From: Patescibacteria group bacterium
GTDB lineage: Bacteria > Patescibacteriota > Minisyncoccia > Phycocordibacterales > SBAW01
Reading direction: 5' to 3'
DNA length: 64,000 nt
NCBI GenBank assembly: GCA_019752125.1
Contig: JAIEMM010000002.1
Coordinates: 67,062 to 131,061, forward strand
The position numbers and the translations under genes were made by a program. Positions 6,273-58,172 of this stretch are shown here, one piece after another. The notes under the pieces were generated by a model, which saw nothing but the letters and a program-made list of their open reading frames with translations, ran no database searches and was not told the DNA's origin. Each line of letters opens with the position of its first letter. Position 1 is the stretch's first letter.

Positions 6273-6288
6273 ATCTTTTTAGTATAAC

Positions 6289-8234: not shown

Positions 8235-8257
8235 AGCTATAGCAAAGTATACGTTAC

Positions 8258-21000: not shown

Positions 21001-24000
21001 TCTAAATTCATTCACTCCAGCAGTGCTTCCAAAGAAGCCCGCATAATTAGAGCTAGAATTAACGGTCAAGTGACCTGCGTTATCCATGGAAAGCAACGTT
21101 GTGGTTGCCGTTGCAGTTGAAGAGCCAATTGCAAACAAGGTTGTGTTTGTGTCACCGTTGTTTGCGTGGATTGCAAAACGAGCGAATGGAGATGTTGAAC
21201 CAACACCGACGTTGCCCTGGACAATCAAGCCGTTAGTTGGTGCCGTTGTTGCCCAATAACTACTACCGATAGTAGTACCTCCTGAAATCGCGAGCACGCT
21301 AAGTGGGCTACCGAGACCTGAAGCCGCGCCAATACCCACAGCGTTACCGTTTGGGTTAATAAAGAGTTGCGCGCCACCATTACCATAGGCACTCGTACCC
21401 TGAATAGCTCCGTAGCCTCCTATATAAGCACCGAGCGACACCCCTGCCGAGCTACCTATTGTTCCAATGTTGGTGCTTCCAAAGTAGTTGCTGCTTGAAA
21501 TGGTGCCACCGCCAACTACGGCGAGACCAGTCTGCGGCGTTGTAGTACCGATACCGACGTTTGAAGCAAAGTATGCACGGCCTGTTGTTGTTGCAGGGCC
21601 GTTAACTGTAAGGCCGAATGTACCATCACCGATAGTTGACGATGCAAACGCTGTGAAGCCGCCAGCAAAGCTTGAAGCTGTGGTTGATGTTGCAGTGAAG
21701 TAGCCAGCGATTGCCTGGTTACCAAGAGATGAAATTCCTTCAACTGAGAGTTTTGCCCATGGAGATGTTGTGCCAATGCCGACGTTGCCTGCATTTGTCA
21801 CCGCAAACAACGTGCTTGTTGCAGTTGCAGTTGAAGAGCCGATTGCAAACAACGTTGTGTTTGTGTCGCCGTTGTTTGCATGGACTGAAAGTTTTGCAAA
21901 TGGAGATGAAGTGCCAATACCTGTTGTGCCTGCGACGATAAGACCTGTTGATGGAGCCGCAACGAGCGGATACCCAACCGATGCATTAGTTCCAACGTTC
22001 AAGCCAGAAAGTGGAGTAGATCCCGAGCGGATAGAAACACCGTTCGCCCCCGCAGGCATGTACAGAAGACCGCTACCGTCGGTGTTGTGGAAGAAGACAT
22101 GCTGGCCGCTTACCTCAAAACCGTAGTTACCCAGCACTCCTGTTGTACCAATTGTAGTATTTCCATTTTGGAGTGTTCGGAACTGGCTACCAACAGCAAG
22201 CCCGCCGCTTATCGTTGTTGTTGCAGTCGAGACACCTGCATTGATATTGCCGGCATTGTCGACAAGGAAGAGTGTTGTTGAAGCGCTGTTTGAAAGTTCA
22301 AACGCACGGCTAGTAGCAGCGGAACCACCGCCCTGAACACTCAAGGCTGCATACCCCGTTGTAGTGCCAATAGCTACATACGTAGAACCTATTCCAAATG
22401 GGTTTATGGCAAACGGAACTGCGCCGTTGCCAGCTGTCGAGACCGACTCCATATACGGGGTGCTGGCTCCTGCTGAATTGAGCAGGCGTCCAAACCCAAG
22501 TGCGCCCGACGTACCAGTAAAGTCAAACTGAACGGCTGTTTGATTTACTCCTGTTGCAAAAATGCTGCTACTTACAACCAATTTTTTGGTTGGACTAGTT
22601 GAGCCGATGCCAACATTGCCAGCGAAGTACGCATTGCCAGTAGTTGTTGCGCCGCCGTTGATAGTGAGACCACCATTTTGGTTACCGTTACCAATAGTTG
22701 ATGATGCGAGTGAGAGGAAGCCATTTGTGAATGTTGAAAGGCCGGTAACGGTGAAGGTTGATGTTGCAACCAAATTTCCTGCAGTGAGCGTACCTGAAAC
22801 AAGCGCGTCGCCTTGAACTGAAAGTTTTGCGTATGGTGATGTGGTGCCGACACCAACACTACCGTTTGACGCGATAAAAAATGCGGTGCTCGTCCCAAGA
22901 CCGTTTGTTGAAGATGCAACCATAAAGAGCGGCGATGAGCCCACGCCATTTGCCACAACAGAGAACTTAGCCCATGGAGTAGTTGTGCCAATACCGATAT
23001 TGTTTTCGACGCCTAGATTGTTGAAATACAGTTTGTTGTTCCCATACCCAAATGTTTTATACCCATACGTCCCATCCCATCCGTTAGAGATCAATGCATT
23101 GCCACCTGCGTCTTTTACAAGTATGGCACTGCCATTGTTATCCATGAGTTGAATTGCGCTTGCAACCTGCACCAACCCGTTAGACGTCTTGAGAATTCTA
23201 AGCGAGTATGCGTCGGATGGTTTGTAAATATATCCAAATGAGATGTTGCCTGAAGAATCAACCTCTATGTCTCTTGTATTTCCATTCGACGATTCAACCA
23301 CAAACCGTGTTGTCGCATCGCTTACCACCGCAAACCCAGCAGATGGGCTCGATGTGCCAATTCCAACTCTCCCTGCAAAGTACGCATTACCCGTTGTTGT
23401 TGCGCCGCCGTTGATAGTGAGACCACCTGTTTGTGTGCCATTGCCGATGGTTGATGATGCGAGTGAGAGGAAGCCGTTTGTGAAGGTTGCAAGACCAGTT
23501 TGTGTAAGCGTACCCGTGTGTGTGGTGTTGCCTGAGACAGTGAGTCCTTGTGCAGTGAGTGTTCCAAACGCAGCAAGTTGTGCAAACAAGTTTGTTGATG
23601 ACGCTGTTGTTGCGAAGAATGCGCTTGAGGTTGCGTTTGCAAGGACTGTATTTCCGGAGACCGTGAGTGTTGAAGTTGCGGTGATTGCTCCACCGAAGAA
23701 TGCAGTGCCTGATGTGTATTGATTGCCTTGGACGGAAAGATTTGTTGATGGAGAGGTGGTGCCGATGCCAACGTTGCCATTTTGATCTATTCGCAAACGC
23801 TCAGTTTTAACCAGAGATGTGGATGGAGTTGTAAAGAAGGTCATGAACGTACCGTTGGACGCAGTGTTCCAGTTTTCAGATGCGTACATACCAATCGCCG
23901 CACGACTACCTGTTACAAAATTACTTCCGTCATACCCGCGAGCGCCGATGAAACCGATCTGATCATTCGCCAAAAGTGCCGTTGGCGCTACATTTGTTCC

Positions 24001-26598: not shown

Positions 26599-26924
26599 GA
26601 AGTCCGATATTGCTTTTGTTTGTCCAGTGATTTCGGAGAAGGCACTACATATATTTTACGAGAAAAGTTGTTATTTCTTCAGGAAATTTTCATCAAAAAC
26701 TGTGGATAGAAAATAATTAAAAACTTCGTAAAAGCTTTTATAACAAAAGTTATTTTGGAAAACGTATTCAAGTACATCAACAAATTTTTATGCGCTGTTT
26801 TTAGTACAAAGTTTTTGAAAATTATTGCTAATTTTTGTTACTACTTTTTTTATTATGTTTTATAGATTTATCGTATTGCCTTACCGATATCTCGGCTAAA
26901 CGAGTTGATAAATATAAGAAAAAT

Positions 26925-26949
26925 GCCCTGATCGGGCTACCGTCAGGGC
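26925..26949 (-). terminator. Candidate intrinsic terminator downstream of the HTH-TM gene
   Basis: 7-bp stem GCCCTGA/TCAGGGC with an 11-nt loop. On the minus strand it is followed by ATTTTTCTT. Confidence 0.4.
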
Positions 26950-26994
26950 GATTTTCTATGAGATTTTTCTTAGTAAATTCTTACCAAAAAATTT

Positions 26995-27903
26995 CTAGTT
27001 TTTGCTGTTTTGACAATTTTTAAAAATGAAGCAAAATGTTTTTTCTTGAGCGAAAGCCACACTTGCAGGCTTTCCCTTCTCTACTATTACTACTGAATTG
27101 ATGCCCAAAGATCCAAAGAACGCGAACCCAAAAAAGATAGCTGCCACTACGGTGACTGAAGCTACCGCAAATCCTGTCTTCCATATACTTCTTTTAGGGC
27201 GCAAGATTGGCTGTGCTGTGTGTGCTGGTTTGGCTATTTGAGCCACTACATACTCATCTTTTCTTACCTCTGCTGCTGGTTTTGTCCTTTTCTGTATTGC
27301 TGGAAACAAAGGGCTGTTGTCAGGGATGTACGTAAGGGATGTTTTAAATGGAACCTTCTTTTCTGCAATTACTGGTTTTGCAAAACCTTCAGCAACAAAA
27401 GCTGCTTCAGAAACAAGCTTCCCGGAACGCGGAGAATTCTCTGCTAAGAATTCTCCTACGTACGGCACCGTCGTGCCTCCCTGCATTCCGGCTAAACTTA
27501 TTTCTTTAGCAGCTTCGACAGCTGGTGTCACGGTAGACTCTACTTGCGCAACCACGACGGGTGCAGATGCCGAAACAGGAACTTCTTGAGAAAAAGTCTG
27601 GCGCAAGGTTTCCGAAGGAAACCGAGGACCCCCGAGGACTTTCTCGAAAGAAGGTTCCTGTGTAGGTTCAGTCTTTTCCGGTGAGTTTGTATTCTGCGCA
27701 GGTGTCGCCAAGCTCTGACCTCTCTCCTTGCCGAGATACTCGGCAAAAGAAGCTTCATCTACATACCACGCACGACCTACTTTAGTACCAGAAACTCGGC
27801 CAGCTCGGATAAGCTGTCCTACGTAGTCTGGGTGATACTTATTTTCTTTAGCAATACGCTTAGCCGAGATGTATCGCTTTCCCGAGATTTCTAATTCATC
27901 CAT
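26995..27903 (-). CDS. Membrane protein with an N-terminal excisionase-like HTH module (paralogous to the giant protein N-terminus), a low-complexity region and a C-terminal TM segment
   Basis: ISAKRIAKENKYHPDYVGQLIRAGRVSGTKVGRAWYVDEASF matches the HTH module of the giant protein. TM helix FAVASVTVVAAIFFGFAFFGSLG lies near the C-terminus. Confidence 0.6.
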   Translation of the reverse strand: MDELEISGKRYISAKRIAKENKYHPDYVGQLIRAGRVSGTKVGRAWYVDEASFAEYLGKERGQSLATPAQNTNSPEKTEPTQEPSFEKVLGGPRFPSETLRQTFSQEVPVSASAPVVVAQVESTVTPAVEAAKEISLAGMQGGTTVPYVGEFLAENSPRSGKLVSEAAFVAEGFAKPVIAEKKVPFKTSLTYIPDNSPLFPAIQKRTKPAAEVRKDEYVVAQIAKPAHTAQPILRPKRSIWKTGFAVASVTVVAAIFFGFAFFGSLGINSVVIVEKGKPASVAFAQEKTFCFIFKNCQNSKN

Positions 27904-34433: not shown

Positions 34434-34707
34434 CTTTCGAGAGGATATCCTTTAATCGAATATTAAAGGAGAGAGCGACTATGCGCGCTTCTTCTTCTTT
34501 GCTGCTTTCTTTTTCTTTGCCATTGTAGTAGCGATCTGATCGCAAAATTTTTATGACATCGACCGACCTTGTGTAAAGTTTGTCCGCGGACAATTCAATA
34601 CACAATCTCGATGCTCTACCAATCAGTATCGAGTAAATAAGTTATAGATACAATGAAATTAATCTTCGCAGTGTGGATAACTTTATTTTTTAAATAAAAA
34701 ATAATTT

Positions 34708-35715
34708 CTATAAAATTTTTACTTCTGGTTCAATTTTTATTTTCAACTCGTCAAAAACTTTTTTTTGTACAACATGTACAAGTTCTTTTACGTCCTGCGC
34801 AGAAGTTCCGCGCGTAGCAGCAACAACGAGTGCTTGTTTTTCAAACAAGCGTGCACCATTAACTGCATACCCTTTGAGATGCAGTGCATTATCAAGGAGC
34901 CAGGCCAAAGGTACTTTTACCCCCTCCGTTTCCGGCATGGAAAATAAAGGCATGTCAGGATATTTTTCTTTAAGAACCTCCGCATCGGCGCGCGACATAA
35001 TAGGGTTTTTAAAGAAAGAGCCTGCTGTTCCTAGGACTGAAAGGTCAGGGAATTTTCTATTGCGGATGGACAATATTTCACCACGAATTTCCTGCAATGT
35101 TGGTGTCTGACCCCCTGATGCAAAGCGCGCTTGCAGATCTTTGTAAGAAATATTTGGCGCAGGCGTAGAAGAAAGTCTAAGCGTTGCGGCAAGTACAACA
35201 TATCTTCCCTCCTCTTCTTTAAAGATGCTTCCTCGATATCCAAAAGCACACTCCTGTGCTGAAAGCATTTTTACTTGGTTGTTTTTCGTATCATACACAG
35301 CCACCAACGTCAGCACTTGTGAAAGCGCTGCTCCATAGGCACCTATATTTTGAACTACGGCCCCACCAAGAGTGCCTGGAATACCGGAAAGATTTTCTAT
35401 CCCCCACAAACCACGATCGACACAGAAAGCGACTAGTTCGTCCCAGTTCTCACCCGCCGATGCAGCCACACTAGTTCCATCAACAGTGATCCCGTTTTTG
35501 ATTTCAATTTTTATCACTAACCCATCGAACCCTTCATCTGGGATAAGCATGTTTGATCCTCCGCCCAAAATGAGGGTGGCTAGTTTTTTGTCCCGAGCGA
35601 AGTCGAGAGATTCTACAAGTTCAGCTACAGTTTTTACAACAACAAAATATCGCGCCAGCCCCCCTATCTTAAATGTCGTATAGGGTGCGAGCGCGATATT
35701 TTCTTGGAATTCCAT
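34708..35715 (-). CDS. murB: UDP-N-acetylenolpyruvoylglucosamine reductase
   Basis: FAD-binding domain (LILGGGSNML, GIENLSGIPGTLGGAVVQNIGAYG) plus the MurB C-terminal domain. Confidence 0.85.
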   Translation of the reverse strand: MEFQENIALAPYTTFKIGGLARYFVVVKTVAELVESLDFARDKKLATLILGGGSNMLIPDEGFDGLVIKIEIKNGITVDGTSVAASAGENWDELVAFCVDRGLWGIENLSGIPGTLGGAVVQNIGAYGAALSQVLTLVAVYDTKNNQVKMLSAQECAFGYRGSIFKEEEGRYVVLAATLRLSSTPAPNISYKDLQARFASGGQTPTLQEIRGEILSIRNRKFPDLSVLGTAGSFFKNPIMSRADAEVLKEKYPDMPLFSMPETEGVKVPLAWLLDNALHLKGYAVNGARLFEKQALVVAATRGTSAQDVKELVHVVQKKVFDELKIKIEPEVKIL

Positions 35716-38081: not shown

Positions 38082-39338
38082 ATGATCCATTGGACTAAGC
38101 AACAGTTATACGACCTTCTGCGGTGGTCTGAGCGTTACACCAAGGTAAACATGGTGCATTTTGTAGGTGGCAACGTGTGGATGAATTTGGGCAGAGTGTT
38201 TTCCATTGGGACAGGTCTCGTACTGACAGCCGCGTTTGCCAACCTCCTCGACCCCGAACTATTTGGTGTATATAAATATGTGCTCGCGGCCGCAAGTCTG
38301 GTTGGTGCGTTTACACTCAACAACATGAGCGGCGCACTGATGCGCGCCGTTGCACAAGGCAAACAGCACGTAGTGCCTGGTGTTGTGCGCACCATGATGC
38401 TCTGGAGTGTGCCGGCAAGCATCGTAAGTGCCGGGATTGGCGGATACTATCTCTTCCACGACAACACGACGCTTGGCTACGGATTTCTTTTTATAGCTGT
38501 GTTCAACGTCATTTCCAATGGGTATGGCTTAGCAAAGTCTATTATTATCGCGAAGGGCGATTTTAAAAATTCTTTTTTCTTGGGCCTTCCACGCACCATT
38601 TTCCCAATTATAGTAATTGTCGCTGCACTGTTTTTTACACACAGTGTTATCTGGATTCTTGCTGCATACTTTTTCTCAAACGCGTTTGCAAGTTGGATAC
38701 AATACCTATGGACTCTAAAGAGGTATGGTATACGAGGTTCAGAGCACGATGTTGAAGAAACTGTACGTTTTGGAAAACATTTGAGTATTCTGGGGTTTTT
38801 TGTGCTCGTAAGCGGGCAGATAGATCAACTTTTGTTGTTTCATTTTTCCGGAGGCACCCAATTGGCGATATATGCTCTTGCCCTTGCGCCTGTTCTTGAA
38901 ACACGCAATTTACTTGATAACTTTCTTTCCATACTGTTCCCGCGGCTAGCCGCAAAAGACAAGGAGGAAGCGCGACGTGGGCTAGGACTGAGACTGCGCC
39001 AGCTCACCGTAGCGGCCATTCTACTCACAGCACTCTATATTGTATGCATACCATTTCTATTTACATTCTTGTTTCCAAAATACATGCCTGCCATTCTCGT
39101 CAGCCAAGTACTTGCACTAGGAATTTTATTCCAACCACGAGGCGTAATAGACACCTATATTATTGCCCACGGAGAAGTGAAGCGACGGTATGTTGCTATT
39201 CTTTCAAGCCAAGCTGTTGAATTTATACTTTTCTGCACCCTCATTCCCCTCTTTGGGCTCTGGGGCGCAGTGTGGGCAACCGTGCTTTCTGAAGCTGGAG
39301 CGGCACTCGCACTCTATATCATCTACAAAACGCTTTAA
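38082..39338 (+). CDS. Polysaccharide flippase (Wzx-like, MOP/oligosaccharidyl-lipid flippase family). The start may be the internal Met at about 38151
   Basis: Twelve-TM profile characteristic of the Wzx polysaccharide-biosynthesis family. Confidence 0.6.
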   Translation: MIHWTKQQLYDLLRWSERYTKVNMVHFVGGNVWMNLGRVFSIGTGLVLTAAFANLLDPELFGVYKYVLAAASLVGAFTLNNMSGALMRAVAQGKQHVVPGVVRTMMLWSVPASIVSAGIGGYYLFHDNTTLGYGFLFIAVFNVISNGYGLAKSIIIAKGDFKNSFFLGLPRTIFPIIVIVAALFFTHSVIWILAAYFFSNAFASWIQYLWTLKRYGIRGSEHDVEETVRFGKHLSILGFFVLVSGQIDQLLLFHFSGGTQLAIYALALAPVLETRNLLDNFLSILFPRLAAKDKEEARRGLGLRLRQLTVAAILLTALYIVCIPFLFTFLFPKYMPAILVSQVLALGILFQPRGVIDTYIIAHGEVKRRYVAILSSQAVEFILFCTLIPLFGLWGAVWATVLSEAGAALALYIIYKTL

Positions 39339-39745
39339 GCGCTAGGCTGATTTTTGTACTCCTCGTGCAAAGGAGTCTCAAGGCGAAATGTATCTTTTTC
39401 AAAATCTTCGCCACCACGCAGACCGTCTACAAAGGTTATAAAAACAGAATCCTCGAGCGCAACAAATTCGTGCGCTTCTCCAGGCTCCCACACCGCTAGG
39501 TCATTTTTGTTCAAGATATATTTCTCAACCCTTCCTCCCTCTCCGTTCATGTCCTTGCCGTATGCCTCAAAGCTACCCGAGACAATAAAGTCGTGCTGGC
39601 GAGACACTTTGTGGAAGTGGTTGCCGCGGACACTACCTTTTGTAGTGAAGATAATAGTGCAGTGTTGTTTTGGTTCATTAACAAAAATGTCGGTGATGGT
39701 GCCGCGAGCGTCTTCAAAATTGATTGGTTTATGTTGGAGTTTCAT
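39335..39745 (-). CDS. Cupin-fold sugar 3,4-ketoisomerase-like protein (FdtA/QdtA/WxcM C-terminal domain family). Start at the internal Met (MKLQHKPINF...)
   Basis: Small cupin with the His pair HFHKVSRQHD. The internal start removes a 26-nt overlap with the upstream gene. Confidence 0.5.
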   Translation of the reverse strand: MKLQHKPINFEDARGTITDIFVNEPKQHCTIIFTTKGSVRGNHFHKVSRQHDFIVSGSFEAYGKDMNGEGGRVEKYILNKNDLAVWEPGEAHEFVALEDSVFITFVDGLRGGEDFEKDTFRLETPLHEEYKNQPSA

Positions 39746-39755
39746 ACGTACATTT

Positions 39756-41036
39756 TTACATGTGCGGAACGATAAACGCAATCTTCGGATATTTAGGTCC
39801 GAGTTTCTCTTTAAGGAATGGTGCGATGTTCCACGGCAAAATAAGCGCGTGTGTGACGGCGTCGGTAATAGCGTCGTCGGACACTATTGGTATGTGTGAG
39901 CCGGGTGTGTACTTACCTATTTTAAGAGACGATGTATCAGTAATAAATTCAAGTAGGCTTGTGTCGATTCCGCAGTAATGTAGTAGGGTGTTGCCCTTGG
40001 TTGCAGCGCCAATACCGATGACTGTTCCGCCACTGTGTTTTGCCGCAGTGAGTTCTGCCATCAAATTCAACTTAAATTGTTGGATGTTTTGCATCATGCG
40101 CTGGTACGTTCCAGCAACAAAGAGGCCGGCAGCTTCTTCTCTTGCGATATATGTTTTAACAAGCGGCGTCTCCTCTCCCCCTTTTTTAACAGTGATACGG
40201 ATGGAGCCACCCATATACTCGTTCTCCTGAATATCTGTAATGGTCATGCCGAGGTTTTTAAAGAAGCGCGCAAGCGGCTTGATTGCAAAGTACGACATGT
40301 GTTCGAGATAGATTGTGTCAAAGGCAAGCTTCTGGACGAGATGTAGCATATATGGAACTTCAGCAACAAATGCTCCTGCCTGCGCAGGCAGGCCACCTGA
40401 CACAAGCGCGCGTTCAACGTCCTGCATAAACGCGCTCATGTCGCCAATATGATTGAAGGCGTTCGTTGCAGTAATGATTTTTGCTCCGCCTTGTTTTACT
40501 ACTTCATCTACTGCCACCTTGCTCCAAAAATCATTAATGGTAGGTACGCCATTTTGTGTCGCGAGTGCTGCAATATTATGAGACGGCTCAACGCCAAGAA
40601 TTTTTGAACCCGATTGTGCACGAAACGCAGCAAGCAATGTTCCTACTGAGCTGCCGATATCTACAACCAAATCTTCTGCTCCAACTCCTTCTCGTGCAAT
40701 GACATCAGCTGCCATATCCTCGAAGTGCTGCACGGAAACTTCTGAGTTCTGTGAATCGTAACTGTAATCGTGCGCCTGGTAACGTTTCTGCGGTGGAACA
40801 ATAAAACCAGTCATCGTGTGTCCGCAGTCGCCACACAAAAGAACCTGGAGTGGGTACTTTTCCTCGGGCTCAGACAATTCCTCCTTTTTTAAAAATGTAT
40901 CGGCAAGCGGATGCAGCCCCAAATCAAGAATGAGTTTCAAATCGGCGGAGCCACACAGAAGACAAGTCGTGACAGGCATGAGTGCATACATTCTAACAGA
41001 AAGTGTTTTAAACACGTTTTTATTGACTTTCCTCAT
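39756..41036 (-). CDS. SAM-dependent sugar C-methyltransferase-like protein (TylC3/NDP-hexose C3-methyltransferase family) with an N-terminal Cys4 zinc ribbon
   Basis: C-x2-C...C-x2-C at the N-terminus (CLLCGS...CGDCGH), a class I methyltransferase core (VVDIGSSVGTLL) and a C-terminal C-methyltransferase-like domain. Confidence 0.55.
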   Translation of the reverse strand: MRKVNKNVFKTLSVRMYALMPVTTCLLCGSADLKLILDLGLHPLADTFLKKEELSEPEEKYPLQVLLCGDCGHTMTGFIVPPQKRYQAHDYSYDSQNSEVSVQHFEDMAADVIAREGVGAEDLVVDIGSSVGTLLAAFRAQSGSKILGVEPSHNIAALATQNGVPTINDFWSKVAVDEVVKQGGAKIITATNAFNHIGDMSAFMQDVERALVSGGLPAQAGAFVAEVPYMLHLVQKLAFDTIYLEHMSYFAIKPLARFFKNLGMTITDIQENEYMGGSIRITVKKGGEETPLVKTYIAREEAAGLFVAGTYQRMMQNIQQFKLNLMAELTAAKHSGGTVIGIGAATKGNTLLHYCGIDTSLLEFITDTSSLKIGKYTPGSHIPIVSDDAITDAVTHALILPWNIAPFLKEKLGPKYPKIAFIVPHM

Positions 41037-41086
41037 GATTATTGTATTCTTTCTCGGCCAACCAAAACAGCCTAAGGGAGGCTACG

Positions 41087-41998
41087 TTGCAGCAGTTCTT
41101 CGATATCATCCAAGAGGGTCGTTTCGATCCCAGAAAGATCAAGGTCGGCTGGGGCGCACCCGGCATGTCCCTCAAGCGGACGCCGGAGTCCGAAGCCTAT
41201 CTCGCCCACAAGTGGGAGGAACATCTGGCCAAGGGCAACACGCCCTGGCCGGACGATCTGAAGCCTAAGCGGGTCCGGCTGGCAAGCTTCCAACCGACCC
41301 AGGACGGTGCTGAAATCGTCCTCGATCCGTGCATCCGCTACTACGACTCGCTGGGTTCGAACTCGCCTGAGTTCGAAAAGCTGTTCGGCCACGAGTGTGT
41401 CCCCAACGCGCTGGCGGTATCGGTCTTCGTCGAGACGTATGACGGGCAGATGCTCGTCAGTGTCCGCAACAGCAAGACGGACTACAAGCCGCACGGCTAC
41501 CATCTCTCCAACGGCGGGTACTTCGAGTTCTGGAACGCGAAGGACCCCAAAAAGGCCGACAAGGACCCGACATCTGCGGCTCGGCGTGAGCTCAAGGAAG
41601 AAACCGGTCTCGACGATTCCCACGTGGTTTTGTTGGACTGCATCGGGGCGGCCTATGACCGGTGGGCGCTCCACACGGACATCATCTACCACGCTGTGAC
41701 CAACCTGACGGCGAAGCAGGCCCTCGCTCTCCCGCACGATGACGAGAACGACATGCGTGCGGTGCCGAGCGACAAGGAACACTTCGAGCTGTTCCTCGGT
41801 GGGTTCATGCATGCAAACGTCGTCATCCCGATGGCAACGTTGCTCATCATCGGCACCGAACGGTACGGCCTCCAGTGGAGGGAGGAAATGCTCAACGTCC
41901 TGGCCGACGGCAGCCAGTGCTACGATGATCCGGCCGAGCGCCTCCTCCGCGAAGCGGAAGACACCGCCCAGTTCCAGAAGTACATCCAGAGCCTGTAG
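41087..41998 (+). CDS. Hypothetical protein with a Nudix-like motif (RELKEETGL), encoded in a GC-rich island that is probably foreign. The start is probably TTG at 41087, 5 nt after the SD TAAGGGAGG
   Basis: GC is about 60% against 45-50% in the flanks, with strong GC3 bias (Lys AAG, Leu CTC/CTG). It has its own strong SD and a terminator. The track ORF (41042..) and the antisense ORF 41072..42016 are artefacts of the GC-rich composition. Confidence 0.5.
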   Translation: MQQFFDIIQEGRFDPRKIKVGWGAPGMSLKRTPESEAYLAHKWEEHLAKGNTPWPDDLKPKRVRLASFQPTQDGAEIVLDPCIRYYDSLGSNSPEFEKLFGHECVPNALAVSVFVETYDGQMLVSVRNSKTDYKPHGYHLSNGGYFEFWNAKDPKKADKDPTSAARRELKEETGLDDSHVVLLDCIGAAYDRWALHTDIIYHAVTNLTAKQALALPHDDENDMRAVPSDKEHFELFLGGFMHANVVIPMATLLIIGTERYGLQWREEMLNVLADGSQCYDDPAERLLREAEDTAQFQKYIQSL

Positions 41999-42019
41999 CC
42001 ACAGGCCCTCACACACTCA

Positions 42020-42054
42020 AGCCCTACCGGCAACGGCAGGGCTTTTTCTTTTTG
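42020..42054 (+). terminator. Rho-independent terminator of the GC-island gene
   Basis: Stem AGCCCTACCGG/CGGCAGGGCT with a GCAA loop, followed by TTTTTCTTTTT. Confidence 0.55.
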
Positions 42055-42070: not shown

Positions 42071-42712
42071 ATGAAAACAGTATTGCTTACGGGAGCTGGT
42101 GGCGGCATTGGTAGCGCGATCGCATCATCCATGACTGGTGATGGGTATGAAGTGGTGACTATAGATCGAAACGATGCAGATCTTTCTTCCTACGAAGACA
42201 TTCAGAAACTTGCAGAAAAATTCTCTGCGGAGGGAAAAACGTTTGACTGGGTTGTCTGCGCGCATGGGTTTATAGACGGCGTGACGGAACCTGAGCAACA
42301 AGACCCTGAAATGATAGTTAAAAATTTCGAGGTAAATACATTCTCTCTTTTTTATATTTCGAAATTGTTTCTTCCTCTACTTACAGAGGACGGCGGAATG
42401 ATTTTTATTTCTTCGACCTCAGGTATACAAGCAAATGGGCGCTTTCTTGCATACTCAGCATCAAAGGCTGCAGTTAATTCCCTAGCCCAAGGATTGGCAC
42501 GTAATAAACCCGAACATCAATTTTTTAGCCTATGTCCTGGCCCAACAAATACATCTATGCGAGAACGCATTGCAGGTGATGCCACAAAAATGCAAAGTCC
42601 TGACGTAATTGCAAAAACTGTACTTGATCTTATAAACCAAAATGGCGATTTCAAGAGTGGAGATATTATCTCCGTCCGTGACGAACAAGTCGCTATTGTT
42701 TCAAAAATATAG
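42071..42712 (+). CDS. Short-chain dehydrogenase/reductase (SDR) family oxidoreductase
   Basis: TGAGGGIG cofactor motif and catalytic YSASK. Confidence 0.82.
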   Translation: MKTVLLTGAGGGIGSAIASSMTGDGYEVVTIDRNDADLSSYEDIQKLAEKFSAEGKTFDWVVCAHGFIDGVTEPEQQDPEMIVKNFEVNTFSLFYISKLFLPLLTEDGGMIFISSTSGIQANGRFLAYSASKAAVNSLAQGLARNKPEHQFFSLCPGPTNTSMRERIAGDATKMQSPDVIAKTVLDLINQNGDFKSGDIISVRDEQVAIVSKI

Positions 42713-42714
42713 TC

Positions 42715-43707
42715 TTACTTCTCAGCCGGCTTTGGATTTGCAAGGTACCAGTCGATGGTTCGGCGCAAACCTTCTTCAAGATTTACTTTTGCTTCCCAGC
42801 CCGTATCTGTTTTTATCTTTTCAACCGATGGTAGGCGGCGTTTAACACTACCCTCTGGAGAGTTCTTTTGGACAGTTTCTGTTGGATGCCACTGCATGAG
42901 CTCAAACATCTTTTCAACCAGATCTCCGATCTTCGTCTCAACATTTGTGCCAATGTGATACGTGCCGTTGTCAGTTTTCTTTGACTCCATGACTGTTTGG
43001 ATTGCCTCAACGGCATCGTCTATGTAGCAGAACGAGCGCGTGTCGTCTGCGCCAAAGATAGTAAATGGTTCTTCTTTAGCACTGATGCGAGCGACAAGCT
43101 CTGGGACTACATGGTCGTAGCCTGCGCGTGGCCCGTAGAAATTGTGTGGGCGCACGATAGCCATTCTAAGGTTGTAGGCCTTTGCGTAGTGAATAAAAAA
43201 CAACTCACCAATGAGCTTTTGCCCGCCGTATGACCAGCGCGAGTTGTACGTGTCAGAAATAATAAGCGGCGCAGTTTCAGGTGTTGGAATCTCAATTATG
43301 CCAAGATCAAAACCGCTCGCGTATGCTTCGTTTGAAGACGTGTAGAGAATTTTTGCATCAGGTTTTCCGTTCTTACTACGAAACCATTCGAGCGCATTCA
43401 TCGTTGTTGAGAGGCCAATGCGAAGCACTTCGTGCGGAATAGAGTAGAAAAGTTTTGTTCCGTTGATGCCAACCAAGTGATACACCTCATCGTAGCCAGT
43501 ACCAAGAGCGTCCCACGCCTCGGGCTTGGTCAAATCCCCCTCTATTAGTTTTACATTCGGAAGCTGGAGTAGTGCTTCAAAATCTGGGTTGCGTTTGCCA
43601 CGGAAAAAATTGTCTGCAAGCGTAAGTTCAACCCCCTGGCTAGCGAGGCGTTTAGAAAGATGGTAGCCGATGAATCCCGCTCCACCAGTGATAAGAACCT
43701 TTTTCAT
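42715..43707 (-). CDS. NAD-dependent nucleotide-sugar epimerase/dehydratase (extended SDR)
   Basis: ITGGAGFIG Rossmann motif and catalytic YGGQK. Confidence 0.8.
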   Translation of the reverse strand: MKKVLITGGAGFIGYHLSKRLASQGVELTLADNFFRGKRNPDFEALLQLPNVKLIEGDLTKPEAWDALGTGYDEVYHLVGINGTKLFYSIPHEVLRIGLSTTMNALEWFRSKNGKPDAKILYTSSNEAYASGFDLGIIEIPTPETAPLIISDTYNSRWSYGGQKLIGELFFIHYAKAYNLRMAIVRPHNFYGPRAGYDHVVPELVARISAKEEPFTIFGADDTRSFCYIDDAVEAIQTVMESKKTDNGTYHIGTNVETKIGDLVEKMFELMQWHPTETVQKNSPEGSVKRRLPSVEKIKTDTGWEAKVNLEEGLRRTIDWYLANPKPAEK

Positions 43708-43714
43708 TCAGCGA

Positions 43715-44503
43715 TTATAGCACCGTTGTCTTATACTTCTTGTTTATCTCGACAATGCCGTCAAAGATAGAAAGGTCGCCCGTGTTACCAAGAAGTTTCT
43801 TGGCATAGTGCGCAAGCGCAGAAGTGTCTTTAGGAAGGCATGCACCGCCGAAACCACGGAACTGTTCATTTGCATCAAGATATACATCACCAACATTGCG
43901 GTGTTTAACAATGGCATTTTTTACTTTGTTGTAGTCAGCTCCTGCAGCTTTGCAGAGGTCATAGAACTGGTTCGCATACACAATACGAAGCGCGTTGAAT
44001 ACATTCAAGAAATATTTTGCAAACTCAGCCTCAGTTGGGGTAACTACCGCATACGCTTTTGGCAATGGATCATGCACTTCTCTCAACAACTCAGCGTCAC
44101 GGGTATTGTAGACACCCATAATGCAGACATCGTGATTTTCTACGAAGTCGACATACATTGCGCGTTCACGGAGAAACTCTGGACAGAATGAGAGACGAAG
44201 ATTTGGATATTGTTTTGAGAGGCGGTCAGTGGTACCTGGCTCTACAGTAGATTTGATAGTGATGAGACCACGGAATTTTTCTGCAGCAAGATCTGCAACC
44301 ACCTTCTCTACAATGGATGTGTCGCAAGAACCGTCTGCCGACTGAGGGGTTGGAACGGAGACAAAGACGACTTCAGAGAAGAGGACGTCTTTGATAGACG
44401 TCTCAGGCATTTTAACGTCGTACACCGACACCTCATGTCCAATACGAGTAAGGCCGTGTTGAACGGCTGCACCAACTTTTCCGACTCCGATAATTCCGAC
44501 TCG
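43715..44503 (-). CDS. UDP-glucose/GDP-mannose 6-dehydrogenase family protein, short form (start probably MRVGIIGVGKVG)
   Basis: N-terminal Rossmann GIIGVGKVG, a CPEFLRE motif and the catalytic-Cys motif GGACLPKD. At about 262 aa it seems to lack the usual C-terminal UDP-binding domain. Confidence 0.55.
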   Translation of the reverse strand, partial: RVGIIGVGKVGAAVQHGLTRIGHEVSVYDVKMPETSIKDVLFSEVVFVSVPTPQSADGSCDTSIVEKVVADLAAEKFRGLITIKSTVEPGTTDRLSKQYPNLRLSFCPEFLRERAMYVDFVENHDVCIMGVYNTRDAELLREVHDPLPKAYAVVTPTEAEFAKYFLNVFNALRIVYANQFYDLCKAAGADYNKVKNAIVKHRNVGDVYLDANEQFRGFGGACLPKDTSALAHYAKKLLGNTGDLSIFDGIVEINKKYKTTVL

Positions 44504-44574
44504 CATAAAAACGTACCTTATCATAGCCACCGTTGGCCAACAACACAACTTGACTAAGAGGCAAGAAATATTGC

Positions 44575-46302
44575 CTATATACGTCGATAGATTACAAAAT
44601 CTCCGACGCGAGCCTGCTCTTTTAACACAGGGATCCTTGAGTATTCACCCACTTCCCCCGTTTGCGACACAACAAGTGTAATGTCTAGCAAGTCAAAGGC
44701 TTTGGCCCATGGCAAGGCATAAAATGCCGCATAGCCTTGGGAAAGTTTTCCAAACTCCTCTTCTGGGACAGCGGAGGGGTCACCAAACTTCTCTCGCAAC
44801 CACAACCCCCACAGACGATCGCCCACATGATGCGCTTCTGTGCGAATTGTATTTTCAAAATCTTTTGGCACTATTCCCTTTAAACGATATTCCAAGAAAA
44901 GTCGGTTCTCAAAGAATGTCTGAGGGATCGGATAGCTGCCCGCATTTACACTGTTTGGGGCATCGTCATGAGTGTAGATGGGAATAAAATCCGATGAATA
45001 TTCATCTGTCCAAACCACCTGGGGCGCTTCAATAGTATTGAGATACGCAACCAGCGGTCCATACTTTTGTTGCGACAAAGCATTCGCACGAGTGCTCTGA
45101 TACCATGGCGCCAAAAATCCCATGCTGTTGTAAACGAGAACGAGGAGCAGTGCAGCAGTAAGAGCCGGGCGGAAACGAATTGCCACAAATCGTTCAATCA
45201 GATATCCCGCAAACAACCCTGCAAGCACTCCCGCTAGAGGTTTAGTGAGGTACCAATGGTAATGACCAGGCTGAAGATATGAACCAGTGAGCATTTGTTG
45301 ATTAAGCACACACAGCAAGGCCGCTGAAATAATGAGAAAGAACACCTTGCCTGGTTTCGAAAATCCTTTTGGCCACAAAAACCCGACCACAAGCGCTATC
45401 AAGGGAAGAAGTGCTCCGAGTATAAACTCACGGCGATGAACAAGGCCGAGAAATTGTGAAAGATGTTCGTAGCCAGGCAATGCAGAAAGCGCCATGTAGT
45501 TAAAAAGGAATGGAACCGCGGCCAACAATCCTACGGTCCCGGAGAGAAATATGTATGATGCGTGCTCGTACTTTCGCTGTATAAGGAACCACCCAAACGA
45601 GAGGACCATAACAAGACCAAGAAATGTATACGTGAACGGTGTTATATAGAGCGTCGCTCCAACAAGCAGCCCGATAACAATGGTTTTCCACAACACAGCT
45701 TTTTCATGCCCGTCCGCCGTGGCAGATTGGAAAAACTCGCGGAACATACGCAACAACGAAGCAAACATAAAGATTCCTGCGATCGAGGGATTTACGAGAC
45801 GCGAAAAGAATACAAAAGGACCGCCAGAAGGACTACCTCGAAGAAGATCAAGAAATGGTGCGGGTGAAAACGCAATCAAGTTGTATCCAAACATCGGAAC
45901 CGCAGCGGCCAAAAGCGATGCAATGCGCGAACCTGAAAGCGCAAAGGCAAGCGCATAGATAAGTATGGTGATTATAAATACAGAAACTGATTTCGAAATA
46001 ATCGCTGCACGCGCAGGCTCTACATGAATTGCTTTTGCAAATAGTGCAATTATGTCCTCGCCCAAAGGCGGCGTTGCGTACGGAATATTTTTATTTGGGA
46101 GAAATGTATTACCCGCAGTACTGTGACCCTCTGACACTTCCACAATGCGCGCCAAATAATGATTTTCTGCATCGTGCATCATCATTTCTATACCCTTAAA
46201 TTCTGGCTCTCTCCACAACATAAGGTTTGGGGCAAGCACAATAAGCGCGGCAACTAAGGCGAGAGTGAGCGCAGCCCAATGTTCTTTTACGAGGAGTTTC
46301 AT
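44575..46302 (-). CDS. Large polytopic membrane protein, possibly a GT-C-fold glycosyltransferase. Start probably at ATG 46300-46302 (MKLLVKEHW), which overlaps the asnB stop as ATGA
   Basis: At least 11 predicted TM helices, an acidic DAE motif in the first extracytoplasmic loop and a C-terminal soluble domain. No specific family recognised. Confidence 0.5.
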   Translation of the reverse strand: MKLLVKEHWAALTLALVAALIVLAPNLMLWREPEFKGIEMMMHDAENHYLARIVEVSEGHSTAGNTFLPNKNIPYATPPLGEDIIALFAKAIHVEPARAAIISKSVSVFIITILIYALAFALSGSRIASLLAAAVPMFGYNLIAFSPAPFLDLLRGSPSGGPFVFFSRLVNPSIAGIFMFASLLRMFREFFQSATADGHEKAVLWKTIVIGLLVGATLYITPFTYTFLGLVMVLSFGWFLIQRKYEHASYIFLSGTVGLLAAVPFLFNYMALSALPGYEHLSQFLGLVHRREFILGALLPLIALVVGFLWPKGFSKPGKVFFLIISAALLCVLNQQMLTGSYLQPGHYHWYLTKPLAGVLAGLFAGYLIERFVAIRFRPALTAALLLVLVYNSMGFLAPWYQSTRANALSQQKYGPLVAYLNTIEAPQVVWTDEYSSDFIPIYTHDDAPNSVNAGSYPIPQTFFENRLFLEYRLKGIVPKDFENTIRTEAHHVGDRLWGLWLREKFGDPSAVPEEEFGKLSQGYAAFYALPWAKAFDLLDITLVVSQTGEVGEYSRIPVLKEQARVGDFVIYRRI

Positions 46303-48152
46303 TGTTGTACCCATTGATGATGCCATAGATGGAGCATGAGAAGCGAGAATAGTTTTTTTGAATGATTGCGCGTGCCTTCAATATGTTCTTCCACGTAGCG
46401 TGAGACTACGCGTGGCTCACACAAACCCGCCTTACGTACGTTAGATTCTGAAAGTGTCTCAGTGAGGAGCTCCTTCCACTCACCGCGCAACCACTGCCCT
46501 ACTGGCAACCCAAACCCATGTTTCTTTCTCCATGCAATAGAGTGTGGGAGTTTTTGTTCTGCAAGACGACGTAGAATATATTTGCCTCGGCCTCGATTCA
46601 ATTTTAAATGAGAAGGAAGGGTAAGCGCATATTCAGCTACTGCTCTGTCCAAAAACGGTGCCCTTGTTTCAAGCGACGCACACATGCTCGCACGGTCTGC
46701 TTTTGTTAAATACAGTTCAAGAAGAGCCCGCGAATACCACCATGAAGATTGTGTAAGTGGGGGCGCGCCAGATGCTTCTGAAAATATGTGTTCATCTCGT
46801 TTTGCAATGGAGTGTATCGTATCGCGGTGCGCCGGCGTGAGAAGCTGCGATATTTCCTGCTCTGAAAATGCCGCGAGCCATGCGTGGTGGACCTTAGGAG
46901 GCGCCTTGTCTGCCCCTTTAAGAAACTGTCGCGCCTTAAAATCAAAACTCATGTAGCCGTGTGATACCGGCAAATGATCTACTGCAGAGGAAATACCTTT
47001 CCTTACTGCCTGCGGAAGAAACTTATAGCCATGAAGAAGCTGCTGTGCAAAAAAAGTTGGATACCCTAAAAACAATTCATCACTACCATCACCTGAGAGC
47101 GCGACGGTGATTTTTTCGCGAGCAAAGCTTGAAAGAAGGTGGAGCGGGAGAGTGGCAGGATCTGCGATTGGCTCATCCACATACCCAGCCATAGTGTGGA
47201 GCGCCCCCTCTATATCTTTAGCATTAAGAATATGTTCATGGTGAATTGTGCCTATATGTTTTGCTACTTGCCGCGCATACGACGACTCATCGAAACTTTT
47301 CTCATCAAACCCAACAGAAAATGTGTGTACTTCTCCTGCAAGTTTTTTTGCATACGCTGCAATAAGAGATGAGTCGATGCCACCGGAGAGAAATACTCCG
47401 AGTGGCACATCGCTCACAAGCTGTCGCCCTACTGCTGCTTCGAGCAACGTATCGAGTTCTTTAAGAGCGACTGCTTCTGAAACAGGACTCGGCGTAAAAG
47501 ATGGGTGCCAATAGCGTTCTTCACGTAGGCCGGAACGGGTCACTACAAGGTATGTTGCCGGCGGCACTTTTGAAATATGCTCAAACATTGAAAACGGTGC
47601 CGCCGAGACATCGTATGAAAGATATGAGGCGAGCCCTTCTGAACTCACTGTATGTGCTATGCCCGTATGAGCAAAAAGAGCTTTTGGTTCAGACGCAAAC
47701 ATAAGTGTGCGCTCGGTTCGTATGTAATAAAGAGGTTTTTCTCCGAAACGATCGCGAGCAAGAAACAACGTATCGTTTGAGCCATCATAGAGACCTATAC
47801 TGAACATCCCTTCAAGGCGTGCAAACATTTTTTCTCCCTCCTCCTCAAAGAGTGCAAGTATAACTTCTGTATCTGATTGAGTAGAAAATGTACGCCCCTT
47901 TGATTCCAACTCCTTACGAAGTTCTTTGTAGTTATAGATCTCTCCGTTAAATACGATAGAGAGATTTTTCCTATGCATCGGTTGCGCTGCAGCTGGAGAA
48001 AGATCAATAATGGCAAGACGTCTGTGCGCTAAACCCACATCCTTCCCCTCCCATACGCCCTGCCCATCAGGTCCACGATGCGCAAGTATGTCATTTATGC
48101 GCGAAAGCTCGTCTTTGCTTCCTTCACCAAAATATCCACCAATGCCACACAT
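46299..48152 (-). CDS. asnB: Asparagine synthetase (glutamine-hydrolysing), AsnB family. Start is the ATG giving MCGIGGYF
   Basis: N-terminal Cys2 Ntn-amidotransferase domain, PP-loop SGGIDSS and full length of about 617 aa. Confidence 0.88.
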   Translation of the reverse strand: MCGIGGYFGEGSKDELSRINDILAHRGPDGQGVWEGKDVGLAHRRLAIIDLSPAAAQPMHRKNLSIVFNGEIYNYKELRKELESKGRTFSTQSDTEVILALFEEEGEKMFARLEGMFSIGLYDGSNDTLFLARDRFGEKPLYYIRTERTLMFASEPKALFAHTGIAHTVSSEGLASYLSYDVSAAPFSMFEHISKVPPATYLVVTRSGLREERYWHPSFTPSPVSEAVALKELDTLLEAAVGRQLVSDVPLGVFLSGGIDSSLIAAYAKKLAGEVHTFSVGFDEKSFDESSYARQVAKHIGTIHHEHILNAKDIEGALHTMAGYVDEPIADPATLPLHLLSSFAREKITVALSGDGSDELFLGYPTFFAQQLLHGYKFLPQAVRKGISSAVDHLPVSHGYMSFDFKARQFLKGADKAPPKVHHAWLAAFSEQEISQLLTPAHRDTIHSIAKRDEHIFSEASGAPPLTQSSWWYSRALLELYLTKADRASMCASLETRAPFLDRAVAEYALTLPSHLKLNRGRGKYILRRLAEQKLPHSIAWRKKHGFGLPVGQWLRGEWKELLTETLSESNVRKAGLCEPRVVSRYVEEHIEGTRNHSKKLFSLLMLHLWHHQWVQQ

Positions 48153-48164
48153 ATACAATGCATT

Positions 48165-56351: not shown

Positions 56352-56417
56352 TGCGGCAGTATAGCAGTTTTTGTGACGTTTTTCTCTCTCACGGAGTCAT
56401 ATATACTGATATCACCT

Positions 56418-58172
56418 ATGTGCGGCATTGTAAGCATAATCGGCAAAAATGCCGCCCAGGAGCCTCTTGAGGCTGCGCTCGACACGCTAAGTCACCGTGG
56501 TCCGGACGACCGCGGAACAATGGCTTTTGCAGGTGCCACCCTTGGCCAAACACGTCTCGCCATCATCGACCTTTCCCCTTCCGGCCATCAGCCGATGAAA
56601 GACAATGTCAAGAACATTGCCATCACCTTCAATGGCGAAATCTATAACTACCAAGAACTCCGCACAGAACTTGAGTCGAAGGGGCATCAATTTTCTACAC
56701 ACTCAGACACAGAAGTTATTTTAAAAGCCTACCAAGAATACGGCAGCGAATGTCCGAAAAAACTTGATGGAATGTTTGCCTTTGTTATTTGGGATGATGA
56801 AAAGAAAACAGCCTTTATGGCACGTGATCGCTTTGGTAAGAAACCTCTCTTCTATGCTCATACGCCAGGCGGCACTCTTGCAGTAGCATCAGAAATCAAA
56901 GCACTTAAAGCGGCAGGTGTTAAAACAGAAATAGATCCGCAAGGCATCGACGCCTATTTGACCCTTATGTACGTACCGCCCTGGCGCACGGTATACAAAA
57001 ATGTTCACACTATTCTTGGCGGACAGTGCGCTACCTACAAAAATGATGTGCTCAGCGTTGAGACGTACTGGAGAATGGAGCGCAAACCTGTCTCCGTATC
57101 CTACGACGAGGCGAAGGAAGAAGTTCGCGGATTGTTCACCGACGCAGTAAAGAAACGAATGGTTGCCGCAGATGTAGAAGTCGGCGCATTCCTTTCTGGC
57201 GGCATCGACTCAAGCCTTGTGACAGCCTATGCACAACGCGTGTTGGACCGTCCGCTTCAAACATTTTCACTTGGGTATGGCGACCTTATTGATGAACTCC
57301 CATTTGCAGACCAGCTCGCAAAAAAAGTTGGGACAAACCATCGTACCCTTCAAGCGTCAGCTGATCTCATTCATGAGTTTGAAGCAGCGATGGCATATTT
57401 TGACGAGCCGCATGGCGACCCTGCAGATTTTCCTCAACACCTTCTCTCTCAGGAAACTTCCACGTATGTGAAGGTTGCGCTTTCAGGTGAAGGTGGTGAC
57501 GAAATGTTTTTGGGCTATGGCCGATACTTCTCCTACTGGCACACGAGTAAACTTTCACGTTTACGAAACATGTTGTTTTCAAATCAGTACAAAGATTTTC
57601 TTAAAAACAGTACTGTCTTCCCTCTCTCACTTAGAAAAACTCTTCAGAAAGATTCAACACATGTGTGGACTGAACCAATCGACAAACTTGTACAGAACTT
57701 TAGCGGCTCTACTGTTCAAAAGATGGCCCTCTTCGATATCACCACAAACATGCAAGGCCAGCTACTTACAAAAGTGGACGAGATGGGCATGATGCATGGT
57801 CTGGAAGTGCGTTGCCCCTTCCTTGACTACAAACTCGCGGAGTTCGCGTTTAACCTACCAACTGAATATAAAACTGATGGCAACACAGGTAAGCTGATTC
57901 TTAAAGATTTGCTCGCAGAAGAAATGCCTCGAGAATTTGTTGATAGAAAGAAGCAAGGGTTCGGCGCTCCTGTACGCAAGTGGCTTGGAGAACCAACATT
58001 GCGAGCATATGTTGAAAATGCGTTCAAAGACGCACGTGTGTACGAATATCTCGACAAAGACGCAGTGCAACGATTTATTCAGCAAACCTATGCCAGCCAG
58101 AAACCAAAAGGTTATTACCAATTGTGGACACTTCTCTGCCTTGAGGTATGGTTAAAACGTCATGCAGATTAA
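56418..58172 (+). CDS. AsnB-family glutamine amidotransferase (second paralog). It is probably a sugar-carboxylate amidotransferase in the glycan locus. Start at MCGIVSII
   Basis: N-terminal Cys2, PP-loop SGGIDSS and full length of about 585 aa. Confidence 0.85.
   Translation: MCGIVSIIGKNAAQEPLEAALDTLSHRGPDDRGTMAFAGATLGQTRLAIIDLSPSGHQPMKDNVKNIAITFNGEIYNYQELRTELESKGHQFSTHSDTEVILKAYQEYGSECPKKLDGMFAFVIWDDEKKTAFMARDRFGKKPLFYAHTPGGTLAVASEIKALKAAGVKTEIDPQGIDAYLTLMYVPPWRTVYKNVHTILGGQCATYKNDVLSVETYWRMERKPVSVSYDEAKEEVRGLFTDAVKKRMVAADVEVGAFLSGGIDSSLVTAYAQRVLDRPLQTFSLGYGDLIDELPFADQLAKKVGTNHRTLQASADLIHEFEAAMAYFDEPHGDPADFPQHLLSQETSTYVKVALSGEGGDEMFLGYGRYFSYWHTSKLSRLRNMLFSNQYKDFLKNSTVFPLSLRKTLQKDSTHVWTEPIDKLVQNFSGSTVQKMALFDITTNMQGQLLTKVDEMGMMHGLEVRCPFLDYKLAEFAFNLPTEYKTDGNTGKLILKDLLAEEMPREFVDRKKQGFGAPVRKWLGEPTLRAYVENAFKDARVYEYLDKDAVQRFIQQTYASQKPKGYYQLWTLLCLEVWLKRHAD

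Follow-up and report, generated by a model that had tools for sequence, protein, structure and literature searches.

The window analysed here, a 64,000-nucleotide stretch of contig JAIEMM010000002.1 from a Patescibacteria group bacterium, contains within a predicted surface-glycan locus a GC-rich island that encodes a Nudix-family protein of 303 amino acids (41087..41998, plus strand). The explanation judged probable, with real room left for other accounts, is that the island is a module for a nucleoside diphosphate (NDP)-sugar hydrolase resembling human NUDT22, that it is an old member of a conserved deoxysugar cassette, that its allele was replaced by recombination, and that its high GC content at third codon positions (GC3) was imported.

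GC content over 500-nucleotide intervals was 0.566 at 41001-41500 and 0.612 at 41501-42000, and between 0.33 and 0.56 elsewhere in the 64 kb. The open reading frame (ORF) itself had a GC content of 0.607, with 0.618 at first (GC1), 0.378 at second (GC2), and 0.826 at third codon positions. GC3 of the 40 other ORFs of at least 150 amino acids in the window was 0.433 ± 0.041, with a maximum of 0.517, so that the Nudix ORF stood about 9.6 standard deviations above them. All codon families were moved toward C or G endings (Phe TTC 13/13, Ile ATC 12/12, Asn AAC 10/10, Lys AAG 17/18, Leu CTC plus CTG 26/29), and NNG codons were part of the bias in every family. The GC excess was limited to third positions; GC1, GC2, and amino-acid composition were host-like, the ratio of GARP to FYMINK amino acids being 1.07 compared with a mean of 1.08 for the host genes of the window. 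The first-pass annotation had described a GC-rich, codon-biased island with a strong preference for GC-ending codons, and these values bear it out.

The island is a self-contained module comprising a promoter-like site, a very strong Shine-Dalgarno (SD) sequence, a TTG start, the coding sequence (CDS), and its own terminator, and it is probably monocistronic. The promoter-like site (TTGACT-16-TATTCT, 41023..41050, plus strand) was found by consensus scan and may function as a promoter; its -35 element falls within the 5' start of a divergent C-methyltransferase gene. The SD sequence TAAGGGAGG (41073..41081, plus strand) is separated by a 5-nucleotide spacer from the TTG at 41087, a start that gives a protein identical to the 303-amino-acid NCBI protein. 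Its predicted duplex with the anti-SD (-11.3 kcal/mol) ranked first among 39 window ORFs (median -4.1), a rank that was unchanged when the competing ORFs were allowed their best start. The intrinsic terminator (42019..42053, plus strand) consists of a hairpin at 42019-42044 with a predicted free energy of -16.6 kcal/mol followed by T5CT5; a single A.C mismatch in its stem caused a simple terminator scan to pass over this hairpin. Both signals are as the first-pass annotation described them; it had called them stronger than those of most host genes. SD sequences of comparable strength were present in most or nearly all of the Nudix orthologues, and every orthologue with enough downstream sequence had its own strong terminator, locus L008 excepted.

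Slot conservation and allele replacement

Related loci were recovered as L001-L004, L006-L010, L012, and L013, about 12 known loci in all, and the arrangement around the Nudix gene recurred in independent assemblies (ENA, JGI, NCBI, Logan). The order was the same in all of them. The invariant left neighbour, transcribed divergently, is an NDP-sugar C-methyltransferase gene (Methyltransf_13/14; 39756..41036, minus strand; synteny in L001-L004, L006-L009, L012, and L013). To the right of the Nudix gene usually lies a short-chain dehydrogenase/reductase (SDR) gene on the same strand (Pfam adh_short; 42071..42712, plus strand; GC3 0.332), and beyond it, on the opposite strand and in all loci long enough, a NAD-dependent epimerase/4,6-dehydratase-type gene (42715..43707, minus strand) and a short gene of the UDP-glucose/GDP-mannose dehydrogenase family (UGDH-like; 43715..44548, minus strand), both identified with Pfam. 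By its gene content the locus is a surface-glycan locus with a C-methylated deoxysugar branch, and the synteny marks the Nudix gene as a long-established, fixed part of the cassette, not as a new insertion. The first-pass annotation had it newly inserted between the C-methyltransferase and SDR genes. That claim does not survive, since an orthologue with the same GC3 excess occupies the same slot of every related locus known, a finding that the annotation itself had named as contrary to its proposal.

The alleles in the slot do not share the history of the genes around them. Compared with L012, its closest relative, the window genome (W) showed 76-80% nucleotide identity over the flanks by blastn, and protein identities of 73% for MurB, 84% for the Wzy-TPR protein, 73% for the flippase, 91% for the cupin, 86% for the C-methyltransferase, 82% for the SDR, and 92% for the epimerase, versus 44.6% for the Nudix protein. 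Distance matrices and trees of the C-methyltransferase, epimerase, and SDR paired W with L012 as sisters and put L007 closest to that pair. The Nudix proteins of these three genomes were each about 45% identical to one another and to everything else. In other genome pairs Nudix identity tracked that of the flanks, for example 80% versus 82% between L002 and L003.

Silent sites gave the same picture. At 4-fold degenerate sites under identical residues, the excess identity between W and L012 was 0.18-0.56 in seven flanking genes, with bootstrap confidence intervals above 0, and 0.03 [-0.14, 0.23] in the Nudix gene, which is saturation. The low-similarity block was delimited by blastn, sliding identity, and the 4-fold-site test to approximately 41060..42010; within it identity was about 40-65% in 60-nucleotide windows, with one peak of 0.78 on a conserved motif, compared with about 80% in the flanks. 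The block coincides with the GC island and includes the SD sequence and CDS. It excludes the terminator hairpin, the core of which (CCCTACCGGCAACGGCAGGG) is the same in L012, and the promoter-like stretch, about 80-90% identical to L012, is part of the conserved flank. The Nudix allele of W thus differs from that of L012 far more than the flanks do, its silent sites are saturated, and the margins of the block are abrupt, which is the mark of an allele exchanged by recombination in the conserved sequence on either side. The exchange in the window took place after W and L012 split, and at least two replacements are required among W, L012, and L007. Of the recent horizontal acquisition first proposed, then, a composition foreign to the neighbouring genes stands and the horizontal element is retained as allele exchange, with a history unlike that of the flanks (45% versus 73-92%); a new insertion is not, and recency is not demonstrable. 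What looked like a fresh high-GC import is thereby corrected to a fixed cassette member whose alleles are swapped within the lineage.

Serotype-specific gene replacement in O-antigen and capsule loci offers a parallel: the flanks are conserved, the gene in the middle is deeply divergent, similarity breaks off sharply, and composition stays persistently unlike that of the genome. Classical O-antigen and capsule loci have atypically low GC and undergo multi-gene swaps that include wzx/wzy and glycosyltransferase genes. Here, unlike in those loci, a single soluble enzyme gene is swapped and the GC content is high, at silent sites only.

Between the Nudix terminator and the SDR gene L012 carries an additional module, about 911 bp long (L012:7398-8308), that is missing from the window and L007. 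It comprises a promoter-like site, an SD sequence (ACGGAGGAA), an inositol-monophosphatase (IMPase)-family gene at 7466-8254 (Pfam 5.6e-49, GC3 0.753), and its own terminator, and terminator tails that are almost identical, GGGCTTTT(T)CTTTTT, stand at both of its ends. The terminator of the window has the look of a hybrid between the two found in L012. Weak SD pairing is typical of the host genes of the window, at the median given above, and pairing is strong both in the Nudix module and in the L012 IMPase module (-9.5 kcal/mol). An IMPase in L008 was considered as a copy of the same mobile module and rejected at 31% identity.

Fold, family, and likely reaction of the Nudix protein

The Nudix-family gene is real. 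The protein matched Pfam NUDIX (PF00293) at residues 108-220 with 31.8 bits, against a gathering cut-off of 21.1; among NCBIfam models there was nothing specific or above noise. The catalytic helix REUxEExGU is intact (RELKEETGL, with R167, E168, L169, E171, E172, and G174). Two alignments were used, one of 17 sequences from the close family, which also seeded the genome scan, and a broad one of 43 sequences; E168 and E172 were invariant in 43/43 sequences, and R167, E171, and G174 showed conservation of 90% or more, up to invariance. In its upstream half the Nudix box is non-canonical, relatives having Gx7Ex7RE and not the canonical Gx5Ex7. The first description of a RELKEETGL box with non-canonical spacing was thus accurate, the helix half being intact and the upstream half aberrant.

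An AlphaFold2 (AF2) model built from 15 family sequences had a pLDDT of 91.1 and a pTM of 0.89, and divides into an N-terminal domain (about residues 1-105), a Nudix domain (about 108-227), and C-terminal helices (230-302). In Foldseek searches of the Protein Data Bank (PDB) the best match to this model was human NUDT22 (E 2.4e-13; template modelling (TM) scores 0.69/0.73), aligned at full length over 286 columns of 303. Other Nudix structures matched at the core only, with E values of 1e-6 or above, and the NUDT22 match was seven orders of magnitude better than that of any single-domain Nudix protein. There were 152 PDB matches at E ≤ 1e-3, and among the 50 matches listed all were Nudix or IDI-type folds. 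The model therefore predicts an alpha/beta/alpha Nudix fold.

NUDT22 is a UDP-glucose/UDP-galactose hydrolase (PDB 5LF9, 5LOR, 5LOU) and converts UDP-glucose to UMP and glucose-1-phosphate (PMC10101856, citing Carter et al. 2018). It is a sequence outlier without a conventional Nudix box (PMC5688067). The window protein shares its N-terminal plus Nudix two-domain architecture and, like it, departs from the canonical Nudix box (PMC5688067); a nucleotide-sugar substrate, as for NUDT22, is plausible from the glycan-locus context. The window protein differs in being bacterial, in having two long helices added at its C terminus (246-302), in the fully canonical REUxEExGU half of its box, and in showing about 15% identity and no sequence-level match (profile versus PDB, E > 1). 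A second comparison is WcaH, a Nudix NDP-sugar hydrolase within a glycan operon that is thought to regulate precursor pools (PMC10037897). Both are Nudix enzymes inside a surface-polysaccharide cluster and both act on nucleotide-sugars, in the window enzyme presumptively. WcaH/NudD (GDP-mannose mannosyl hydrolase) differs as a single domain of about 160 amino acids that cuts at sugar C1 to yield GDP and mannose, and it matched the window model at the core only (E about 5e-5, TMq 0.23-0.28, no NCBIfam match).

The window enzyme probably cleaves a nucleotide-sugar, for which UDP-glucose is a less likely candidate than a deoxysugar intermediate linked to dTDP, GDP, or CDP. Its metal-binding REUxEExGU helix would cleave the pyrophosphate of the NDP-sugar, so that NDP-sugar and water yield nucleoside monophosphate (NMP) and sugar-1-phosphate. 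This would take place inside a conserved Saccharibacteria cassette of 4,6-dehydratase/epimerase, C-methyltransferase, cupin, and SDR genes, whose presumed product is a C-methylated deoxysugar destined for a surface glycan. The enzyme may trim or recycle the intermediate pool, or pass sugar-1-phosphate to another nucleotidyltransferase, and recovery of the nucleotide would be valuable to a salvage-dependent organism. The earlier suggestion that a nucleotide-sugar pyrophosphatase suits the context gains support from the predicted full-length NUDT22-like fold and the conserved glycan context. On the other side of the balance, the window protein carries an additional insertion of 7 residues and a Lys at the position of the Glu in the relatives' Ex7RE, identity to NUDT22 in structural alignments was 14-16%, NUDT22 was not among the PDB sequences matched by the family profile at E ≤ 1, and substrate and activity are deduced solely from fold and locus context. 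PDB sequence searches recovered generic Nudix cores only. The protein is accordingly best called NUDT22-like in its predicted fold and not a demonstrated member of the NUDT22 family.

The family is rare. Its close members made up 13 clusters among 5.8 billion, and about 17 proteins were found by exhaustive hidden Markov model (HMM) search of 1.84 billion representatives; the same search found 224 proteins at E ≤ 1e-10 with the whole architecture of about 300 amino acids, taken as the wider superfamily. Only 2 of 185,579 species genomes carried the close family, both of them metagenome-assembled genomes (MAGs) of uncultured Candidatus Saccharibacteria, and a metagenome scan added near-duplicates only. 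A further homologue search with a broad profile yielded hardly anything new, a limit set by its word index. Among about 15 billion proteins there was no non-self homologue above about 48% identity; the closest were Saccharibacteria-context proteins at 38-48%, and the next tier consisted of generic Nudix matches or fusion proteins at E about 1e-17. The fusions include P0086, P0093, P0095, P0100, P0102, P0115, and similar proteins of about 490 amino acids in which the whole NUDT22-like unit forms the C-terminal half, and many of these are GC-rich in amino-acid composition and belong to other, possibly actinobacterial, lineages; the architecture is uncharacterised. P0138 (933 amino acids) is another fusion.

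A family of about 17 close members that had no specific annotation now has a likely fold and reaction class, that of a NUDT22-like nucleotide-sugar pyrophosphatase, and the two-domain NUDT22 architecture, an outlier among human Nudix enzymes, appears to have bacterial counterparts in the 224 proteins of the wider superfamily. The window gene adds a new bacterial member to an established type of enzyme, and its mosaic glycan locus is of an established type as well. As an insulated, exchangeable putative nucleotide-sugar hydrolase in the glycan locus of an episymbiont, it is a candidate for a part in glycan variation or nucleotide salvage.

The GC3 excess and its competing explanations

GC3 of the Nudix gene in the relatives was 0.685, 0.712, 0.726, 0.771, 0.784, 0.692, 0.714, 0.744, 0.795, 0.741, and 0.710, against neighbour means of about 0.42-0.58. 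It was the gene of highest GC3 in every relative's locus except L012, where the adjacent accessory gene was slightly higher. Between the window gene and its more distant relatives, codon identity at identical residues was 0.45-0.53, compared with 0.43-0.48 expected; silent sites are saturated, and it is therefore composition, not retained nucleotides, that the orthologues have in common. The offset of GC3 over neighbouring genes was +0.39 in W, about +0.32 in L012, and +0.28 in L007, the genomes with discordant alleles, and about +0.19-0.21 in L001-L003, whose alleles are concordant with their flanks.

The most likely cause is repeated import with slow amelioration, in which alleles with GC-richer codon usage would be taken up time and again from an unsampled pool and would then drift only slowly toward host composition. 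In its favour are the larger GC3 offsets of the discordant alleles, the clearly accessory GC3-rich IMPase gene stacked beside the Nudix gene in L012, and a parsimony count of recent silent changes in the Nudix genes of L001-L003, which gave 24 from GC to AT and 6 from AT to GC with balanced flanks. Several points weigh on the other side. Such a count is biased under skewed composition. An under-powered non-stationary likelihood analysis gave an equilibrium GC3 of 0.62 [0.26-0.83] for the Nudix gene and 0.42 [0.29-0.53] for the flanks. GARP/FYMINK ratios of all 17 close-family proteins were 0.93-1.25, as opposed to 1.6-3.3 in distant GC-rich relatives, and mid-GC values of GC1, GC2, and GARP/FYMINK in all alleles are unexpected if they had long resided in a GC-rich genome. 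The databases searched, with about 15 billion proteins and 185,579 species genomes, held no GC-rich carrier or close donor. The window protein was its own 50% cluster representative among the 15 billion, and the readable genomic contexts of the close family were all glycan loci of the Saccharibacteria type.

The alternative that survives best, though it is rather unlikely, supposes no transfer at all: the gene was inherited vertically, its high GC3 is maintained by a force that affects silent sites in no other gene, and fast protein evolution lowers identity. GC-biased gene conversion could be such a force, and so could selection for GC-ending codons, for the sake of mRNA stability or of codon-tuned translation. 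In favour of this account, all of the about 12 loci, with silent sites saturated relative to each other, show the GC3 excess, amino-acid composition is host-like and no donor is known, the conserved strong SD and own terminator suggest special expression requirements, and maximum likelihood put the equilibrium GC3 of the Nudix gene, as a point estimate, above that of the flanks. Fast protein evolution alone is insufficient, however, to saturate the silent sites of the Nudix gene between W and L012 and leave those of seven flanking genes unsaturated, and the 80% identity between L002 and L003, next to 82% in the flanks, indicates that the gene is not intrinsically fast.

Several possible causes of the excess were tested and not supported. 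Translational selection for high expression was rejected because the genes for L25, GAPDH, FBA, transketolase, and pilins in the window have GC3 of 0.38-0.49. Special mRNA structure was rejected because the minimum free energy of the CDS showed no more structure than synonymous shuffles (z = -1.66); there was no Rfam match to a known RNA family. That NNG codons share in the bias across every codon family also counts against the no-transfer account. A bias intrinsic to the superfamily was rejected on P0168, which belongs to the wider family and has GC3 of 0.27 in a genome of 39% GC.

A related proposal is that the excess is not a fading foreign mark but a gene-specific codon regime maintained across the Saccharibacteria clade by a silent-site force, possibly as codon-tuned, insulated expression of a potentially toxic hydrolase or through local GC-biased conversion; it is a shade more doubtful still. 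Import with amelioration is held somewhat ahead of a silent-site force as the cause of the GC3 excess. A silent-site GC excess with host-like amino acids is a small but real puzzle, setting amelioration against selection in reduced genomes.

That the gene was acquired once and recently, as a new insertion, from a high-GC donor external to the lineage, such as the actinobacterial host of an episymbiont, is improbable. This reading would account for the extreme GC3 of 0.826 with actinobacterium-like codon choice, for the sharp block edges, and for the strongest SD in the window, and distant superfamily members with GC-rich amino-acid composition do exist, including a Streptomyces protein. Conserved synteny largely refutes it, since the slot is filled by an orthologue with the same anomaly in all known relatives. 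The nearest non-self homologues, moreover, are the Saccharibacteria-context proteins at 38-48% identity, and GC2 (0.378) and GARP/FYMINK are those of the host. The first-pass suggestion of a high-GC donor such as the host is not upheld, as no homologue exceeds about 48% identity in about 15 billion proteins and the close family is mid-GC in its amino acids. Nor was there any link to a tRNA, repeat, phage, or plasmid: the 64 kb contained no tRNA genes, there were no meaningful flanking repeats, and no phage or plasmid relatives were found. A gene for an IS200-like Y1 transposase (10505-11170), in a low-GC patch (GC 0.387) 30 kb from the Nudix gene, was the one mobility gene observed anywhere in the 64 kb.

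Hypermutation confined to the gene, with a GC-biased spectrum that raised silent and replacement divergence along with GC3, is very improbable. High divergence and high GC3 do coincide in one block, and the distances of about 45% are star-like with no intermediates. However, no known mechanism targets a whole CDS, no template repeat like that of a diversity-generating retroelement (DGR) or other repeat lies nearby, and the transcribed terminator hairpin is perfectly conserved. The alleles of L001, L002, and L003 are 78-81% identical, matching their flanks, with similar rates of silent change per site.

That an antisense ORF, a structured RNA, or an assembly chimera accounts for the GC-rich block, in place of this gene or in addition to it, is refuted for practical purposes: a full-length antisense ORF (314 amino acids, 41072-42016, minus strand) exists in the window, but it is codon-aligned with the sense frame and not conserved, being open only because TTA, CTA, and TCA codons are absent from the sense frame (relatives have 1-5), there is no Rfam match, the sense protein is conserved and folds confidently in AF2, and independent assemblies have the same arrangement.

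Neighbouring genes and other features of the window

Beside the C-methyltransferase gene lies a small cupin gene (39335..39781, minus strand) with a weak Pfam match to FdtA/WxcM-like proteins, which may be assigned to the same deoxysugar cassette. Farther out in the window are genes for a flippase, a Wzy_C ligase, glycosyltransferases, an aminotransferase, and asparagine-synthase-like proteins.

A cytidylyltransferase-like gene of 175 amino acids (PF01467) follows the SDR gene in L001 (11673-12200), L002 (4232-4759), and L003 (4770-5297), probably also in L013, and is missing from the window, L007, L008, and L012. Its product could re-activate sugar-phosphate freed by the Nudix enzyme. L002 also has a second Nudix gene (5808-6413, 201 amino acids, GC3 0.653) between the epimerase and UGDH-like genes; it was considered as a copy of the same mobile module and rejected as unrelated to the family studied here (hhalign probability 6%).

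Two giant minus-strand ORFs at 11194-17682 (2162 amino acids) and 18001-26598 (2865 amino acids) have GC2 of 0.56-0.57, higher than GC1, and probably encode repetitive surface proteins. Low-GC troughs at 26501-27000 (0.328) and 34501-35000 (0.380) are apparently intergenic or promoter regions. Transketolase is split into N-terminal and C-terminal genes (5283-6272 and 7377-8234) with two pilin-like (N_methyl) ORFs between them, and adjoins genes for Rpe, RpiB, GAPDH, FBA, and a PfkB kinase in a compact pentose-phosphate/glycolysis block. Within the glycan locus, two asparagine-synthase-like (amidotransferase) genes lie at 46299-48158 and 56373-58172, and their homologues recur in related loci, which suggests sugar-acid amidation.

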